A DNA stretch of 64,000 nt from a candidate division FCPU426 bacterium (GTDB lineage Bacteria > Oederibacteriota > Muellerivitia > Muellerivitales > Muellerivitaceae): positions 1 through 64,000 of the forward strand of contig CAVYSE010000007.1 of assembly GCA_963771075.1 (NCBI GenBank), given 5' to 3'. Below, in pieces: positions 30,001 through 36,000 of this stretch. Position numbers: made by a program. Positions within the stretch are counted from its first letter, which is position 1; each line of letters starts with the position of its first letter.

Positions 30001-33000
30001 CACCAAGAAAGAAAAATCCACGCAAAGCCGCAGTCGCCTTGAAATACGACCGAGCGACCATGATTGCGCCTCGTGTTGTCGCAAAAGGGCAGGGATTAGT
30101 AGCGGAAAGGTTAATCGAACTAGCAAGGAAAAACGGTGTTCCGGTCGTTGAAGATAAATTGTTGATTGACATGCTGGATTCTTTGAACATAAACCAGGAG
30201 ATTCCTGGTGAGCTTTATCAAGTAGTGGCTGAAATATTGGTTGCGGTTTACCGCGCGGAAACCGCTCGTAAAGCGAAGCTTTAGAGATTAAATTTCTTAA
30301 TTGCTGTTCGTAACGAGGAAATGATTGTTGCCGAAACAGATTCATTCGCGCCCAATAGTGGTGGCGAGAAGGGTGAGAGAATTGAACAAATTAACTACAC
30401 TTAAAAACGTGTTGGTTGAGGAGCGGAATGTTTTCCGCATATTTCGTTTGTTACCATTCTTGTTCGGCTGTTTTTTTCTTACTTCGACAGCTTTTTCACA
30501 ACTAGTTGAACCTTATTTTGCTCGTCCCAATAGCTTGGGAATAGGTCCGCGAGCCATGGGAATGGGCGGGGCTTTCGTGGCCATCGCAGATGATGCTTCG
30601 GCGGCATATTGGAATGTTGCGGGTTTATCCCAGTTATCCTCATATGAACTTTCGGTCGCTAGTGCTCCCACATATTTCACTGAACACATCGTCGGCGGCA
30701 ATCAAGCCTTTGGATTCCCCTATTACGAGTCCATGCAATTTTTGATGCCTATCGCCAAAGAAAACACCTTGGGAATTTCCTTTTTTCGCCCATTCCATCC
30801 CCAGATTAATTTTTACTCAGCCGCGACTTCTTTGACACCCTTGCAAAGCGGGGAGGCGAGTTATTTACAGAATCCCACCTTTCAAGAGAGTGAAATTGTC
30901 TTGTCTTATGCGGCTCGTTTTTCAGCGATTCAAAACTTCTCCGTGGGCATCAATGTTAAAAGGATAACGAACGATCCTTATTACATACGCTATTTTGGAA
31001 ACAACCAAGGTGTTTCCCAAAATTTAGCCGGAGCTATTCCAGTAATTGGCTATGGGGTGGATCTTGGCGTCCTTTTTAGAATTCCAATCACGAAATACAC
31101 CGAGGAATTACGCTTAGGGCTAGCTTTAAATAATTTGGTTAGCCAAATTCAATACTCACAAGGAATTACTTTTGACGATTCAGCGACTTCGGGTATTTTA
31201 ATGGGCCAACCCTTGATTGTGAGCGAAGGGGCGGGCTGGGGAGGCCAACTGATTCCGCCCGAAATTATTTTGGGCTTGGCTTATAAGAATAATTTTCTTT
31301 TCAAAATTCGAAATATAACGGATTTGGATTTTGACCAGGTATCGTCCTCAAATTACGATGATTCATCTCTCGCCTTGGCCAATAAATATTTGCGTTTTGG
31401 AACTGAATTTTGGTTTTTCAAGGATATCTTGAGTTTGCGAGCCGGTTATTCAACACCCTTTATCGCCCCTGGAACGATCTCAATGGGGTTAAGTGTTCGT
31501 GTCCTGAACGGCGATTTCCAAACTGATCTGGCATATTTGATGCCGGTGAGTCCGGAACCTGATATCCAGACCGGCTCTGCTGTGGCAACTACCGACCAGG
31601 GGGGGATCAATTATGAACCTTTCCATATTGGACTGACCTATCGATTCGGGGGTGGGGAAGAATTGCCCCCGCCCAAGGTGAGTGCTTATGTTCAGCCTAC
31701 GTCTTTTGTCCCATCTCAGGGTGAGTCGTCTACTTTTTATTTGGACACGACGGAAGATGTCCCTGTTCATCATTGGAGTGTCTTAATTTATGATCAAAAC
31801 AATCATTTAGTGAGGGGCATGAGGGGTCAGGGACCTCCACCCTCGAAGGTGGCCTGGGGTGGGGAAGACGACCTCTATAGGCCTTTACCACCAGGAGTCT
31901 ATACATGGGCTTTCCAAGTTGAGGATAATTTGGATCATATCGGTTCAAGTCCAGTTCAAACGATTGAACTGGTAACCCCGGCTCCAGTCGTTGCAAAGGA
32001 CGCATCAAAACTAATGAGCATTCGCCAACAGGAAAACGCCCTTTTGACCCAGGAAAGAGCCAAATTAACGTCTTTGGCTCAGCAAACCTTAAAAGCTTTA
32101 TTAGGGGAAGGCTCATCTAACACAGCAGCTGCTGCGGTGACTGTGTCAACACCGGTCGAGAGCCAAGGCAATACCCAGTATCCGCAAACGGGGGGGGTAC
32201 CATCTTTGGGGTTCCCCACCTTGACGCCTGATCAGCCTTTGAACGCTCATTTTGACAAAAATGACCAAGGCGATGAAATCGTTGCGGTGAGTTATAAATC
32301 CCAACAAAGTTATGTGCCTTATCTTTATCAAGAAGCCGCAGATGTCATTAAAACAACGGTCAATTCTGTAGGAACTGGTTTAAAAGAAATTTCTACTCGT
32401 GTATATTATGGGAAAAATGAACTGGATTTGGTGACGTCGACTCAAGCCGCCGCCAACTACGCTTCGGGCAAGATAAGCCAATTGCAGCTGATGCAGTTGT
32501 CGGATATCCACATTAACGGTGTGAAGGTGGGGCCGAATGGTTATTAGGTTTTGCGCATTATTCTTATTATTATTTTCAAGTTTTGTTCGAACGGCTCAAG
32601 CCGGAGCATTTGATAAGGGCGGTATTACAGGGGATGGGGCGAGAGCGGAAGGCATGGGAGGGGCGTTCGCTAGTGTGGCGGATTCCTCGGATGCCGTATA
32701 TTACAATCCTGCCGGTTTGGTTCAGGTTTTGCGCCCGGAAATTTCAGGTTTGGGTTCAGTTCTATTAAACGGGTTAGAAGATCTTTTCGTTTTTACTTAT
32801 GTTCAGCCTTTTGGCGATCAAATGGCCTGGGCCATTTCTACTCAACAGTTGCTTTTCTCCGATGGTAATGAGAACGATCGTATTTATATTGGGAGCTTTG
32901 CAGCGCCTTTGGCGATTGATAAATCCATTTCTTTTGGGATTAATGCTAAATATTATGGCGTAGATTCCCCTTCTCAACCCGATTTTCAGGCAAGCGGTTT

Positions 33001-36000
33001 TGGCTTGGATATGGGTTTTCTATACCACCTTCCCATTTATGACCCGCGCTATGGAAAAGAAATTAACATTGGTTTATGCGCGCAAGACTTGGACACGAGT
33101 ATTCAATGGCAAAAGGGTAATACTGACCCTATTGCCCTTTCAGTTAAGGGCGGGTTTAGTTATGAGTTTACGGATGATTTGGAAACTTCCTGGGAATTTG
33201 AAACAATCAACGATCCAACCGTAGGGCAACATACCTTGTTGCATGCAGGCATTGAGGGTTGGTTTTTCTCAGATCAATTGGGGCTTCGGACAGGCTATTC
33301 TGATTTTATGACCGAGTCAGGTCAATTCACCGCAGGTATAAGTTACCGTTCCCGTACCTGGGGGATTGATTACGCCTATATAGGTCATCCCGAGTATTTG
33401 GGGTCTTCTCATCGTATTGAAGCCAGCTGGAGATTTGGCGATTCGTTTTTGGGTAAAGTGAAGAGTTTTATACCCGAGGGTGTAACATCCTACGTGGATG
33501 GGGATATTATTACGCTTCGTTGGATTAATTCTCCTTCCATTTCATTAGCTGGTTACAACGTCTATTTTTCCAAAGTAACGGGGAGTGGTTACGTGAAAAT
33601 CAACCAGAACCCCATTAAGGCCAATTATTATTCCTTGCGGGGATTGGAGAAAAACACCCGATACTATTTCGTTGTAACTTCTTTGACAAATACCATTCCC
33701 CCGGTCGAAAGCCAATATTCCAGGGAGGTTGTTGCGGGGACCACTTCTGCTCCAGGAGCTCCTGTAGTGGTTCAAAGTGAGCTTCAAAACGAAGGAGTTA
33801 TTGACATTGCCCGACAAGCCGGAATGGGTGGGTTCCCTGATCCTAGTAAAAACGGTTTAAGGGGCTATAATATCTACGTTTCTGAGGTCTCGGGAGGTCG
33901 ATTCGATAAGGTGAATGCCCAACCCATTGCGAATGTTCCTACCTACTTGGTCCGGAAATTGAAGGTTGGTCAGCGTTATTTCTTCTCGTTTACCTCGGTT
34001 GGGTCGGATGGGACGGAAAGTGCTAAATCCCGTGAAGTTTCGGCTGTTGCCTTACCTTATACCAGTATTTCGCAACCACTCTCAACGACTTCCACTCCTC
34101 GTTGAGATGAAAATGGAGATGATCTTTGCCTAGTGGCCTTTATATCGCTGCTTCTGGGATGAACTCGGATATTGTCCGTCAAGACGTTATAGCCAATAAT
34201 TTGGCGAACGTAAGCACGGTGGGTTTTAAGCAAAATCGCTCCGTGGATGTGGCTTTCCCTACATACCTAATCGCACGGCTTCATGATCAAAAGCTGAAGG
34301 TTATGGATGGCACTGCTGAACTTCGCCCCTCTATTGGTTTCATGGGTGGAGGTGTTATTCCCCAATCAAATGCAACGGACTACGCTCAAGGAGCACACCT
34401 GGAAACAAAAAGTCCGTTGGATTTCGCCTTGAATGGTCCTGGCTTTTTTGCTGTTCAGGGTGCCAATGGAAAAACTTATTTGACTCGGGATGGAAATTTT
34501 AATTTGGATGCCAATGGTAAAATTGTCACCAAAGAAGGTTTGACCGTCTTGGGGCATAACGGGGAAATTTTTGTAGATGGCAATCAATTGACCTCCGACC
34601 AGGAGGGAAACCTTACGGTGGATGGTAAGGCCTTGGACCAGCTTTTAACCGTGAAAGTCCAAGACGAAAACAACATGACCAAATTCGGCCATTCATTATT
34701 TCAAATCGGCCCTAAAAACAAAGTAGAACTCATGCCGAATGACGTTCAAGTGCAGCAGGGGTTTTTGGAGCAGTCCAACGTGAGTTCGGTCACGGAAATG
34801 GTAAATATGATCGATACCTATCGGTCTTATGAGCTGAATTCCAGGATCATCGCCTCCTATGATCATTTAATGGGCGAGGCTGCCTCGCAAATTGGTTCGC
34901 TTCACGTTTAAAAAGGATTTGTAGTGTATTTCACGGCCGGACTGCTATTGCGGAGGCCGTTTTACCGCCGAACGACAGAGGCGGAGGTGTTCTGGCTTCG
35001 CATAGTTAGAAATTAAGGAGGGCTTCCATGATGCAGTCACTTTACACGGCCGCGACAGGCATGGCCGCGCAGCAGCTGAATCTTGATACCATTTCGAACA
35101 ACTTGGCCAACGTCAGCACCACGGGGTTCAAGAAGCAAAGGGTTGATTTTCAGGATCTCCTTTATATCAACCTAAAAACTGCAGGCACTCCGACCTCGCC
35201 CGAGACGAATACCCCCGCTGGTTTGCAAGTCGGAGAGGGCGTACAACCCATCGCAACCCAACGTATCTTTACCGAGGGTTCGGTCCAAAACACCAACAAC
35301 CCCCTTGATATCCTGATTCAGGGAAATGAAAGTTTCTTCCAGGTCACATTGCCTAATGGGGAAACGGCCTATACCCGGGATGGTTCATTTACCCAGGATG
35401 GCAACGGTAATATCGTAACAGCCAATGGATATTTCCTCGATCCGCCCATTCAGCTTCCGGCGGATACGGCTTCAATTCAAATCACGGCCACGGGTCAAAT
35501 CATGGTCCAAACGGGTAATTCCACGACCGCAACTCAGATCGGTCAATTGGAATTAACCCGCTTCGTTAATCCCACGGGATTAACCGCGATTGGGAACAAT
35601 TTGTATTTGGCCACTCCCGCTTCTGGCGAACCTATCCAAGGAACCCCAGGCTCCACTGGTTTTTCCAATGTCCAGCAAGGCTCCCTGGAACAGTCCAACG
35701 TGGATGTTACCGAGGAAATGGTAAATATGATCGTGGCCCAGAGGGCTTACGAGTTAAATTCAAAGGCGGTTTCTACGTCCGATTCAATGCTTTATGATAT
35801 CTCCACCATGAAGCAATTCCCCTGATGACGAATTAGCGGAATGCGAGGAACTACTTTATCGCTTTTCTTCGTTTTGGGGTTTTACGTCCAAACGCTGTGG
35901 GCTTTGGAAAAACCTTTTACCGTGCGGTTGTTGGATCAGGCGACGGTTGCGGGACCTGATATCACCTTGGGGGATGTGGCCCAACTGGCAGGAGATGAGA

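Follow-up and report, generated by a model that had tools for sequence, protein, structure and literature searches.

The FlgP basal disk and the FlgT/FlgO/FlgP H-ring of Vibrio are outer accessory rings of flagella, and Buchnera, with its hook-basal bodies, has basal-body genes without flagellin. To our knowledge, no accessory part of any flagellum is an integral outer-membrane barrel, and no such part was found in the literature searched. In the available text of PMC12199754, flagellin is treated as a near-universal marker of a working motor. For Bacteroidota, the accessible part of PMC12635249 describes carrier barrels that hold an adhesin outside the cell and are tied by a periplasmic tail to a motor-driven track.

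Here we describe two adjacent genes for PorV/PorQ-type barrels, A and B, which stand first among the rod and ring genes in a flagellar motor without filament genes and therefore probably encode a new outer-membrane part of this motor; the motor itself may move secreted surface proteins instead of spinning a tail. The window, i.e. the whole stretch of 64,000 nt that was analysed, belongs to contig CAVYSE010000007.1 of genome G000, and coordinates follow the contig numbering. It contains the following features:

6749..28698, + strand: motor and export genes flgBC, fliEFGHIJ, motA, motB, fliL, fliM, fliY, fliO, fliP and fliR and, in the same block, flhB, flhA, flhF, fleN, fliA and fapA
29976..30284, + strand: FlhB-like stand-alone protein of the FlhX type, g01060 (profile match and length conservation)
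30325..32547, + strand: gene A (g01061), open reading frame (profile, model, orthologue alignment)
30499..31647, + strand: hatch (NxAG motif) and barrel of A, mature residues 1-383 (AlphaFold2 model)
31675..31974, + strand: Ig domain of A, similar to FlgD-Ig and T9SS C-terminal domains, predicted to be periplasmic (structure match)
32224..32538, + strand: C-terminal alpha/beta domain of A, ~105 residues, restricted to A-type proteins
32537..34105, + strand: gene B (g01062), with signal peptide, barrel and two FN3 domains (profile and model)
32603-33433, + strand: 14-strand barrel of B
about 33473-33742 and 33791-34060, + strand: FN3 domains of B
34126..39069, + strand: flgF, flgG, flgA, flgH (without lipobox cysteine), flgI and a short flgJ
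39070..40388, + strand: yvyF, flgM and flgN
40398..42812, + strand: enlarged FlgK, 804 aa, with an insert of 250-300 residues; flgL is absent after flgK
42823..46948, + strand: fliK (974 aa), flgD and a TIGR02530 protein
47055..49179, + strand: flgE, with several frameshifts in this assembly
51129..55048, + strand: Thr/Pro-rich cargo of the T9SS type, followed by two plain PorV/PorQ-family barrels

Re-reading of the gene order (flhX-like, A, B, flgF, flgG, flgA, flgH, flgI) confirmed the genome-wide survey's note in that two such barrel genes directly precede flgF-flgG-flgA-flgH-flgI on the + strand and overlap by 11 nt; the gap between B and flgF (start at 34126) is 20 nt. The gene upstream of A had been regarded as an FlhB-like fragment. 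It is not a fragment, because its product matches TIGR00789, the stand-alone FlhB-like family (91.8 bits, with a cut-off of 117), and its orthologues have a steady length of 96-106 aa. Among the families checked, the FlhX-like gene is the upstream neighbour of A only in this one. The call of A as a protein of 663 aa from 30556 had to be corrected, as this start lies within the hatch motif of the barrel and the signal peptide was lost. The frame is open from 30325, the true start is upstream of 30556, probably near 30382, and the predicted cleavage between AFS and Q indicates a mature protein from 30499 on, in line with the orthologues. The frameshifts in flgE are probably an assembly error; the gene is intact in relatives (609-678 aa), and G000 has two further intact copies. 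The tail of the cargo within 51129..55048 is also frameshifted in this assembly and intact in relatives, and the cargo and the two barrels 3′ of flgE are kept in the family of this genome. A scan for sigma-28 promoters yielded 70 sites, compared with 28-42 in crude shuffles, and none of them preceded A, flgM, flgK or a clear set of cargos.

According to the models, both proteins are predicted to be Sec-exported 14-strand barrels with C-terminal domains that hang in the periplasm. The models and DSSP assign a FadL-type barrel of 14 strands with a hatch and an NPA-like motif to each of them, and the N and G of this motif are invariant in the orthologues of A and of B. A is composed of a signal peptide, a 14-strand barrel of the PorV/FadL fold, an Ig domain, a 33-residue helix, a flexible linker, and an orphan alpha/beta domain. 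The AlphaFold2 model of its barrel (pLDDT 71) superimposes on PorV with a Z of 28.5 and an rmsd of 3.0 over 289 residues, and the Ig domain on PorU with a Z of 12.7 and an rmsd of 2.2 over 101 residues. For the last ~105 residues, which were not folded and searched on their own and may therefore have a known fold, no family, no solved relative by sequence, and no Atlas match were found. PorV is the top structural match for both A and B; the earlier reading of chain F of 6h3i and 8gl6 as PorV agrees with the depositors' own chain name. When the profile of A was compared with solved sequences, PorV was the sole barrel matched (E 5.5e-5). The Z values are 28.5 for PorV, 26.7-26.9 for FadL/TodX and 25.3-26.0 for BamG-type chains, and because the fold is common to FadL and BamG, it does not by itself make A and B parts of a T9SS.

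The sequences are nearer to the PorV models; Toluene_X, the Pfam family of FadL, was matched at E~1e-4 by some orthologues only. For NCBIfam PorV_fam (NF033709), A has an E-value of 7.9e-23 (81.5 bits) and B of 3.5e-20 (72.8 bits), both below the curated cut-off of 90 bits, while the two plain paralogues in the window are above it (123.6 and 146.5 bits). Pfam and NCBIfam scans of A and B gave no match to a FapH, FlgP or FlgT family. The size of the PorV/PorQ family, previously given as 17 members, had to be mended: phmmer (E<=0.01) retrieved 17 paralogues besides A and B, i.e. 19 barrels in this genome. A, B and one cargo-paired barrel, their nearest paralogue, form a single clade (SH-aLRT 98). 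Ten of the 17 paralogues are located directly 3′ of a CTD-type gene, and A and B have no CTD gene of their own; judged from sequence, they would descend from cargo-paired barrels.

The survey of the phylum comprised 99 genomes of Goldbacteria/FCPU426, an uncultured soil and sediment phylum. A and B, both single-copy, are present in the identical 64 genomes. B is next to the flgF operon in 61 of the 64 (in 51 of them B was read gene by gene directly before flgF, in 10 the assignment is based on B lying <=6 kb before flgI in the same orientation), two are cut by a contig end, and in G035, a single contig, the pair is 260 kb away from flgF. Of the 62 genomes that can be resolved, 61 thus retain the link. 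The proposed nearness of B to flgG was found in each of the 25 genomes of the family that contain B, as well as far outside the family. The genes 5′ of A differ between families and those 3′ of flgK are also reshuffled, and A-B-flgF remains tight. In 27 genomes neither FlgI nor the pair was found, and most of these have SprA; A and B were likewise not found in the six genomes that have a flagellin cluster alone. G017 and G052, which contain FlgI and no A/B, were rejected as exceptions, as their contigs stop before flgF. A search for an independent clean co-loss found none; the best candidate, G015, was discarded because its contig stops after fleN. The survey's view of the barrel as a gene of the flagellar module stands inasmuch as it is fixed, single-copy, and tracks the system throughout the phylum, and A and B are very probably dedicated to this flagellar system in some way. 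Since FlgH and FlgI both occur in an ordinary form, the suggested role as a bushing is unlikely.

Two flagellar systems exist in the phylum, one linked to A/B and one that bears flagellin and lacks A/B. The A/B system includes rotor, stators, switch, rod, rings, hook, export gate, and an enlarged FlgK, and its MotB keeps the transmembrane Asp. Flagellin, FlgL, FliD, and FliS were not detected with it, in agreement with the earlier description of a motor without filament. Flagellin_N/_C matches occurred in 13 of the 99 genomes and in none of the 31 of this family, with positive controls matched; 58 of the 64 A/B genomes are devoid of a flagellin-family match, and neither FliD nor FliS exceeded the cut-off in the five genomes searched. 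The match in G047, an FlgL-like fragment fused to unrelated sequence, was discarded as a probable chimera. A/B precede flgF in none of the nine flagellin clusters with upstream DNA, including those of four genomes with both systems. The FlgI proteins of the flagellin-bearing clusters form a separate clade (SH-aLRT 99 in a quick tree), and their FlgK proteins are missing the insert of 250-300 residues. The contrast, i.e. A/B present and filament absent, corresponds to roughly one evolutionary event.

The survey had cautioned that the T9SS link may be nominal. It is more than that: SprA-like genes (~2000 aa) are present in 92 of the 99 genomes (seven above the cut-off), G000 has 52 matches to the TIGR04183 sorting domain, so that a SprA translocon and CTD substrates are both encoded, and A/B have a cargo-paired barrel as their nearest paralogue. 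The T9SS is independent of A/B, because genomes without A/B retain SprA. The models of GldL, GldM, and GldN had no match in five good genomes, and that of GldM none in 99, with no positive control above the cut-off. In several families sprA is located 14-20 kb before A; an operon was rejected because mutL, miaA, and an MFS gene lie between them, and no energiser was found among the sprA neighbours. In five families, flgK or flgE is followed by a module of cargo and barrel, and in several families lnt, not a cargo, follows flgK. The cargos beside flgK/flgE are non-orthologous and have only linker and tail in common, and the search for an orthologous cargo tracking the A/B system, which is confounded by Thr/Pro linkers, found none. 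In G071, unrelated barrels are found about 2-5 kb before flgF of the flagellin cluster. CTD genes and barrels are abundant, and therefore nearness to flagellar genes can be due to chance.

Our tentative explanation is that A and B together make up a module in the outer membrane that belongs to the filament-less motor, anchors at the basal body and holds T9SS cargo. A physical location at the basal body is somewhat favoured, and the carriage of T9SS cargo there is suggested with reservation. The arm of A, i.e. its Ig and orphan domains on helix and linker, and the FN3 pair of B would keep the barrels at the edge of the basal body; in line with this, the periplasmic domains of A and B are conserved as much as, or more than, the barrels. 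The outer face, PorV-like and mainly that of B, would receive a protein that the SprA-like translocon exports, and the captured protein would be kept beside the turning hook-FlgK tip. A T9SS adhesin would then replace the filament as the load of the motor, which might serve surface attachment, surface sensing or crawling. A true hybrid machine, in which PorV-derived barrels couple the motor to T9SS adhesins without the usual GldLM, yielding a new motility or powered secretion, is rather unlikely.

It seems less likely that A and B are a structural collar only, i.e. barrel-anchored counterparts of the FapH, FlgP and FlgT rings that brace the L/P ring or seal the membrane and have lost the cargo role. 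The same synteny and co-occurrence profile speak for this reading, as does the conservation within A, where the Ig domain, the best-conserved one after the hatch, has a value of 0.65, compared with 0.48 for the barrel and 0.30 for the large outer loop. Precedents are given in the available text of PMC12611786, where BamG, a FadL-family barrel, is a structural subunit of the Bacteroidota BAM complex, and in that of PMC11756786, where the FapH outer ring of H. pylori shields the membrane during rotation. However, flagellin-bearing motors with a larger load work without A/B in the same cells, outer-loop residues of B are conserved in the orthologue alignment, and the ancestry of A/B is among cargo-paired barrels. 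The missing FlgH lipobox, considered as a motive for a barrel anchor, is a feature of both system types and thus indicates no special need for a substitute.

An unlikely alternative regards A and B as co-expressed with the motor and physically separate from it: they would be located anywhere in the outer membrane, as T9SS carriers dedicated to orphan surface proteins whose production accompanies that of the motor. Their carrier ancestry and the detached pair of G035 are compatible with this, as is the use of a shuttle encoded elsewhere by orphan cargos of F. johnsoniae (available part of PMC12618676), but the unique periplasmic arm of A and the place among the early rod/ring genes, which has outlasted many rearrangements, would have no explanation.

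We regard it as improbable that A and B are passive neighbours, i.e. products of an old tandem duplication before flgF, inherited by linkage and functionally independent of the motor. Linkage alone could account for the co-occurrence, barrels of this family are abundant, G035 shows that separation is tolerated, and the housekeeping synteny sprA-mutL-miaA is also long-lived in parts of the phylum. In contrast, the B-flgF link was kept while its surroundings were reshuffled, and A/B were found neither in the 27 FlgI-less genomes mentioned above nor in those with a flagellin cluster alone. Very improbably, the motor stands in for the GldLM/GldKN energy chain and uses the A/B tails either to eject carrier-cargo complexes from SprA or to drag adhesins along the membrane in gliding, with a hook that may stay periplasmic: the undetected Gld proteins (the control genomes being without them as well), the distance of 14-20 kb from sprA to A, and the chemotaxis kinases in four of five genomes would fit, but motor-less genomes keep SprA, housekeeping genes separate sprA from A, and the periplasmic rings of known motors are stationary.

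Throughout the phylum, a complete motor with hook and enlarged FlgK occurs without a detectable filament, and the barrels belong to this system, not to the ordinary flagellum that some members have in addition. A basal-body module that holds T9SS cargo would offer a concrete answer to the purpose of a filament-less motor. The results suggest a link between flagellum and type IX secretion, and A, B, and FlgK are defined targets for the study of this machine.

Among the known systems, PorV (6h3i_F, 8gl6_F; NF033709/NF033710) shares with A/B the 14-strand barrel, the N-terminal hatch, and a genome with SprA-like and CTD genes. The identity is 15-19%, with A/B under the family cut-offs, and A/B differ by large C-terminal periplasmic domains, the location in a flagellar operon, and a host outside Bacteroidota, in which the models tried detected no PorKLMN. 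With the SprF/PorP-type carriers, as described in the available parts of PMC12635249 and PMC12618676, we propose a common logic, i.e. an adhesin held outside and a periplasmic tail to the motor; unlike them, A/B have invariant columns without cysteine, folded domains where those carriers have a short tail, a flagellar motor, and no adjoining cognate cargo gene. BamG and FadL/TodX have the same 14-strand fold (Z 25-27), and BamG, in the accessible text of PMC12611786, is a barrel of this kind that serves another machine as an accessory, whereas A/B have extra domains and no bam or lipid-catabolism context. The FapH ring, in the available part of PMC11756786, is likewise encoded by an accessory gene beside motor genes and acts at the outer membrane. 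However, the FapH, FlgP, and FlgT rings consist of lipoproteins or soluble periplasmic proteins, while A/B are integral barrels with signal peptides in a motor without filament. The partial flagellar sets of Chlamydiota, as far as covered by the accessible text of PMC12199754, comprise basal-body genes without flagellin, as is the case here. A comparable loss of flagellar genes is seen in UBA9089 (PMC13277936). In contrast to Chlamydiota and Buchnera, the Goldbacteria are a free-living phylum that has kept stators, switch, hook, FlgK, FlgM/FliA, and mostly chemotaxis, and has added two barrels.

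The flagellar cluster of the window includes two adjoining genes for PorV/FadL-fold barrels, A (g01061) and B (g01062), which very probably form an outer-membrane module dedicated to the filament-less flagellar system. The source genome is 96.7% complete, and the window is the beginning of its contig C7.

Features of the locus (window positions)
flgB (6749) to flgE (49179): flagellar cluster
30325-32547: gene A, open frame, between an FlhB-like gene and B
32537-34105: gene B, between A and flgF
34911-35028: flgG leader
46948-47055: flgE leader

A and B overlap by 11 nt, and the spacing between B and flgF is 20 nt; to judge from spacing and strand, both genes belong to a putative operon with the flg genes. 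The genome-wide survey's note had placed the start of A at 30556, a position that falls within the hatch motif; upstream of it, a signal peptide is encoded in the frame as well as in the orthologues, and the mature start is at 30499 according to the open frame and the comparison with orthologues. Both proteins match PorV_fam, each below the family cut-off. Their homologues are labelled Candidatus Goldbacteria/Goldiibacteriota in databases, with one relative labelled Firestonebacteria; the FCPU426 cluster equals Goldbacteria in the part of PMC7031533 consulted. Two conserved genes of 194 and 219 aa lie between fapA and the FlhB-like gene (28735-29988) and gave no matches in the family search; by eye, the end of the 219-aa protein resembles the FliK C-terminal domain. 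A kelch-repeat gene (49789-50727) is followed by a small FlbD-like ORF (~50765-50950, by eye), which places the kelch gene inside the flagellar cluster.

AlphaFold2 predicted a 14-strand barrel for both A (20-row alignment, pLDDT 71, pTM 0.51) and B (39-row alignment, pLDDT 76, pTM 0.55). Because the strand count is even (FadL-type topology), the C-terminal parts of both are predicted to be periplasmic. In the model of A, four parts follow the barrel: an Ig domain, which resembles FlgD-Ig and the PorU/PorZ tail for type IX secretion (T9SS), then a helix of 33 residues, a linker modelled with low confidence, and an alpha/beta domain of ~105 residues; in B, two FN3 domains follow. The closest structural matches are 6h3i_F and 8gl6_F, both named PorV, with TodX/FadL and BAM-complex barrels close behind (Z 25.3-26.9 vs 28.5). 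The last domain of A was found in 69 of 8000 candidate proteins scored, all of the length of A or shorter pieces, and had no match in Pfam or among solved sequences. Mean column conservation in A is 0.65 for the Ig domain, 0.48 for the barrel, and 0.52 for the last domain; the FN3 domains of B (0.66 and 0.62) are similar to its barrel. This conservation of the periplasmic arms suggests a periplasmic partner, and we slightly favor the view that the predicted arms would engage one, most simply the periphery of the basal body.

A pure collar is a somewhat unlikely alternative, with precedents in FapH (PMC11756786) and in BamG, a structural FadL-type subunit (PMC12611786), as described in parts of these papers. 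In a quick barrel tree, A, B, and one paralogue downstream of a gene for a T9SS cargo with a sorting tail (CTD) form one group (SH-aLRT 98). In the source genome, the gene immediately before 10 of the 17 paralogues encodes a CTD-type tail; A and B have no such gene of their own. Another reading, of A and B as separate carriers that would be co-expressed with the motor, is unlikely.

The A profile matches 64 of the 99 genomes of the phylum at E<=1e-40; at E<1e-140 the B profile finds exactly these 64 as well, and weaker matches to paralogues come from four more. FlgI occurs in 69 genomes, i.e. 61 with A/B, two with contigs that end before flgF (G017 and G052), and six with only a flagellin-type cluster. 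Three genomes (G028, G032, and G085) have A/B and no FlgI match, with flgF at a contig end, and a seeming A/B loss in G015 was ruled out as a contig break. Gene-by-gene reading placed B immediately before flgF in 51 genomes; in 10 more, it is on the strand of flgI and <=6 kb upstream of that gene, and in two it is cut at a contig end. Both genes are present at 34 of 35 loci, with an A-B gap of <=59 nt in all 34, whereas the gene upstream of A varies by family (FlhB-like, DUF4130, DUF4416, miaA, transposase, AdoHcyase, and others). Among 80 metagenome loci, B in the 16 closest is accompanied by A, flgF, or both wherever the contig extends far enough; the other 64, distant paralogue loci, yielded no rod or ring gene, though one has fliG/motA/motB matches. 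In the single contig of G035, B is 260 kb from flgF, still paired with A. Passive linkage as the reason for the proximity to flgF is quite unlikely.

Flagellin_N and Flagellin_C match the same 13 of the 99 genomes and none of the 31 genomes of the Muellerivitaceae, the family of the source genome, with controls working. One match (L090, G047:C141) is an FlgL-like fragment fused to an unrelated reading frame, and was rejected as a probable chimeric contig. The remaining flagellin genomes have clusters with an FlgK of 463-472 aa, FlgL, and flagellins; FliD and FliW were identified in one. Ten such clusters were read, and none of the nine with upstream DNA has A or B upstream of flgF. Related genomes are not independent, so that the coincidence of A/B with filament loss counts as about one event, and lineages lacking barrels of this kind may simply be where the flagellin clusters originated. 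A quick FlgI tree, in which some branches are long, separates 23 A/B-type from 10 flagellin-type rows (support 99). Five genomes contain both systems (G043, G050, G054, G093, and G094) and are good material for comparing two motors in one cell.

The A/B system has an FlgK of ~690-820 aa, whose insert shows weak similarity to Flagellin_IN/FliD domains, a MotB that retains its Asp, and, in eight relatives within the order Muellerivitales, a FliK of 864-1079 aa. A long hook is to be expected from a long FliK. FliD and FliS were above cut-off in none of five good genomes, and CheA-type kinases are present in four of these. A filament-less system fits the loss of ~35% of the ancestral flagellar genes in FCPU426, as given in part of a preprint (PMC13277936).

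The flgE gene of the window is frameshifted. It is intact in relatives, indels distinguish short-read contigs from the window at this gene, and two further, nearly identical intact copies lie outside the cluster, which together make an assembly error likely.

Extra flgE copies in the source genome
C8:91579-93495, minus strand: adjoined by a large CTD cargo gene
C7:251483-253402, plus strand: adjoined by a large CTD cargo gene

One of these copies is surrounded by mobile-element genes. The frameshifts in flgE, a Thr/Pro cargo gene, and sprA, like a single-base discrepancy in flgD (window 46052-53068; C20:131583-137533 of the same genome), are probably long-read assembly errors.

A gene of ~2000 codons for an SprA-like translocon is present in 92 of the 99 genomes, seven above cut-off, and the source genome has 52 sorting-domain matches. 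Model searches for GldL, GldM, and GldN, run without a positive control, gave no match. The phylum, which is not part of Bacteroidota, encodes such a translocon together with many CTD cargos and gave no GldL/M/N match, raising the question of the energy source of its T9SS. SprA is kept in most genomes without A/B and without FlgI, so secretion does not need the A/B-system motor, and a role of this motor as T9SS energiser is very unlikely.

In five families, a cargo-plus-barrel module comes after flgE or flgK. CTD genes also stand beside additional copies of flgK/flgD or flgE in G014, G024, and the source genome. Against a T9SS link, the cargos in the five families are not orthologous, lnt follows flgK in other families, and unrelated barrels are also found near flgF of the flagellin cluster in G071. 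A second flgD/flgK cassette in G014:C7 (L207, L208) and G024:C20 (L205, L206), located behind a two-component pair, is interleaved with two T9SS-tail cargo genes, three glycosyltransferase-like genes (~260 aa), and one HlyD-like gene. In G024, flgE and TIGR02530 are close by, and searches for FlhA, FlgI, and A/B gave no match. On G093:C26, a second long flgK adjoins a flgD-like gene.

No description of the A/B pair was found in the literature listed on FCPU426/Goldbacteria flagella, PorV, T9SS, or filament-less systems, mostly non-subscription papers, in part, without the supplements of PMC13277936 and PMC7031533, where the absent filament genes may be listed. Returning to A/B as an outer-membrane module of the flagellum, its ancestry among cargo-paired barrels suggests a held T9SS-exported protein; tentatively, A/B could still hold such a protein, which would be a load for the hook-FlgK tip. 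For Bacteroidota, part of PMC12635249 describes adhesins that are kept on the surface by carrier barrels, with a periplasmic tail joining the barrels to a motor-driven track, and, according to part of PMC12618676, the shuttle used by an orphan cargo can be encoded at another locus.
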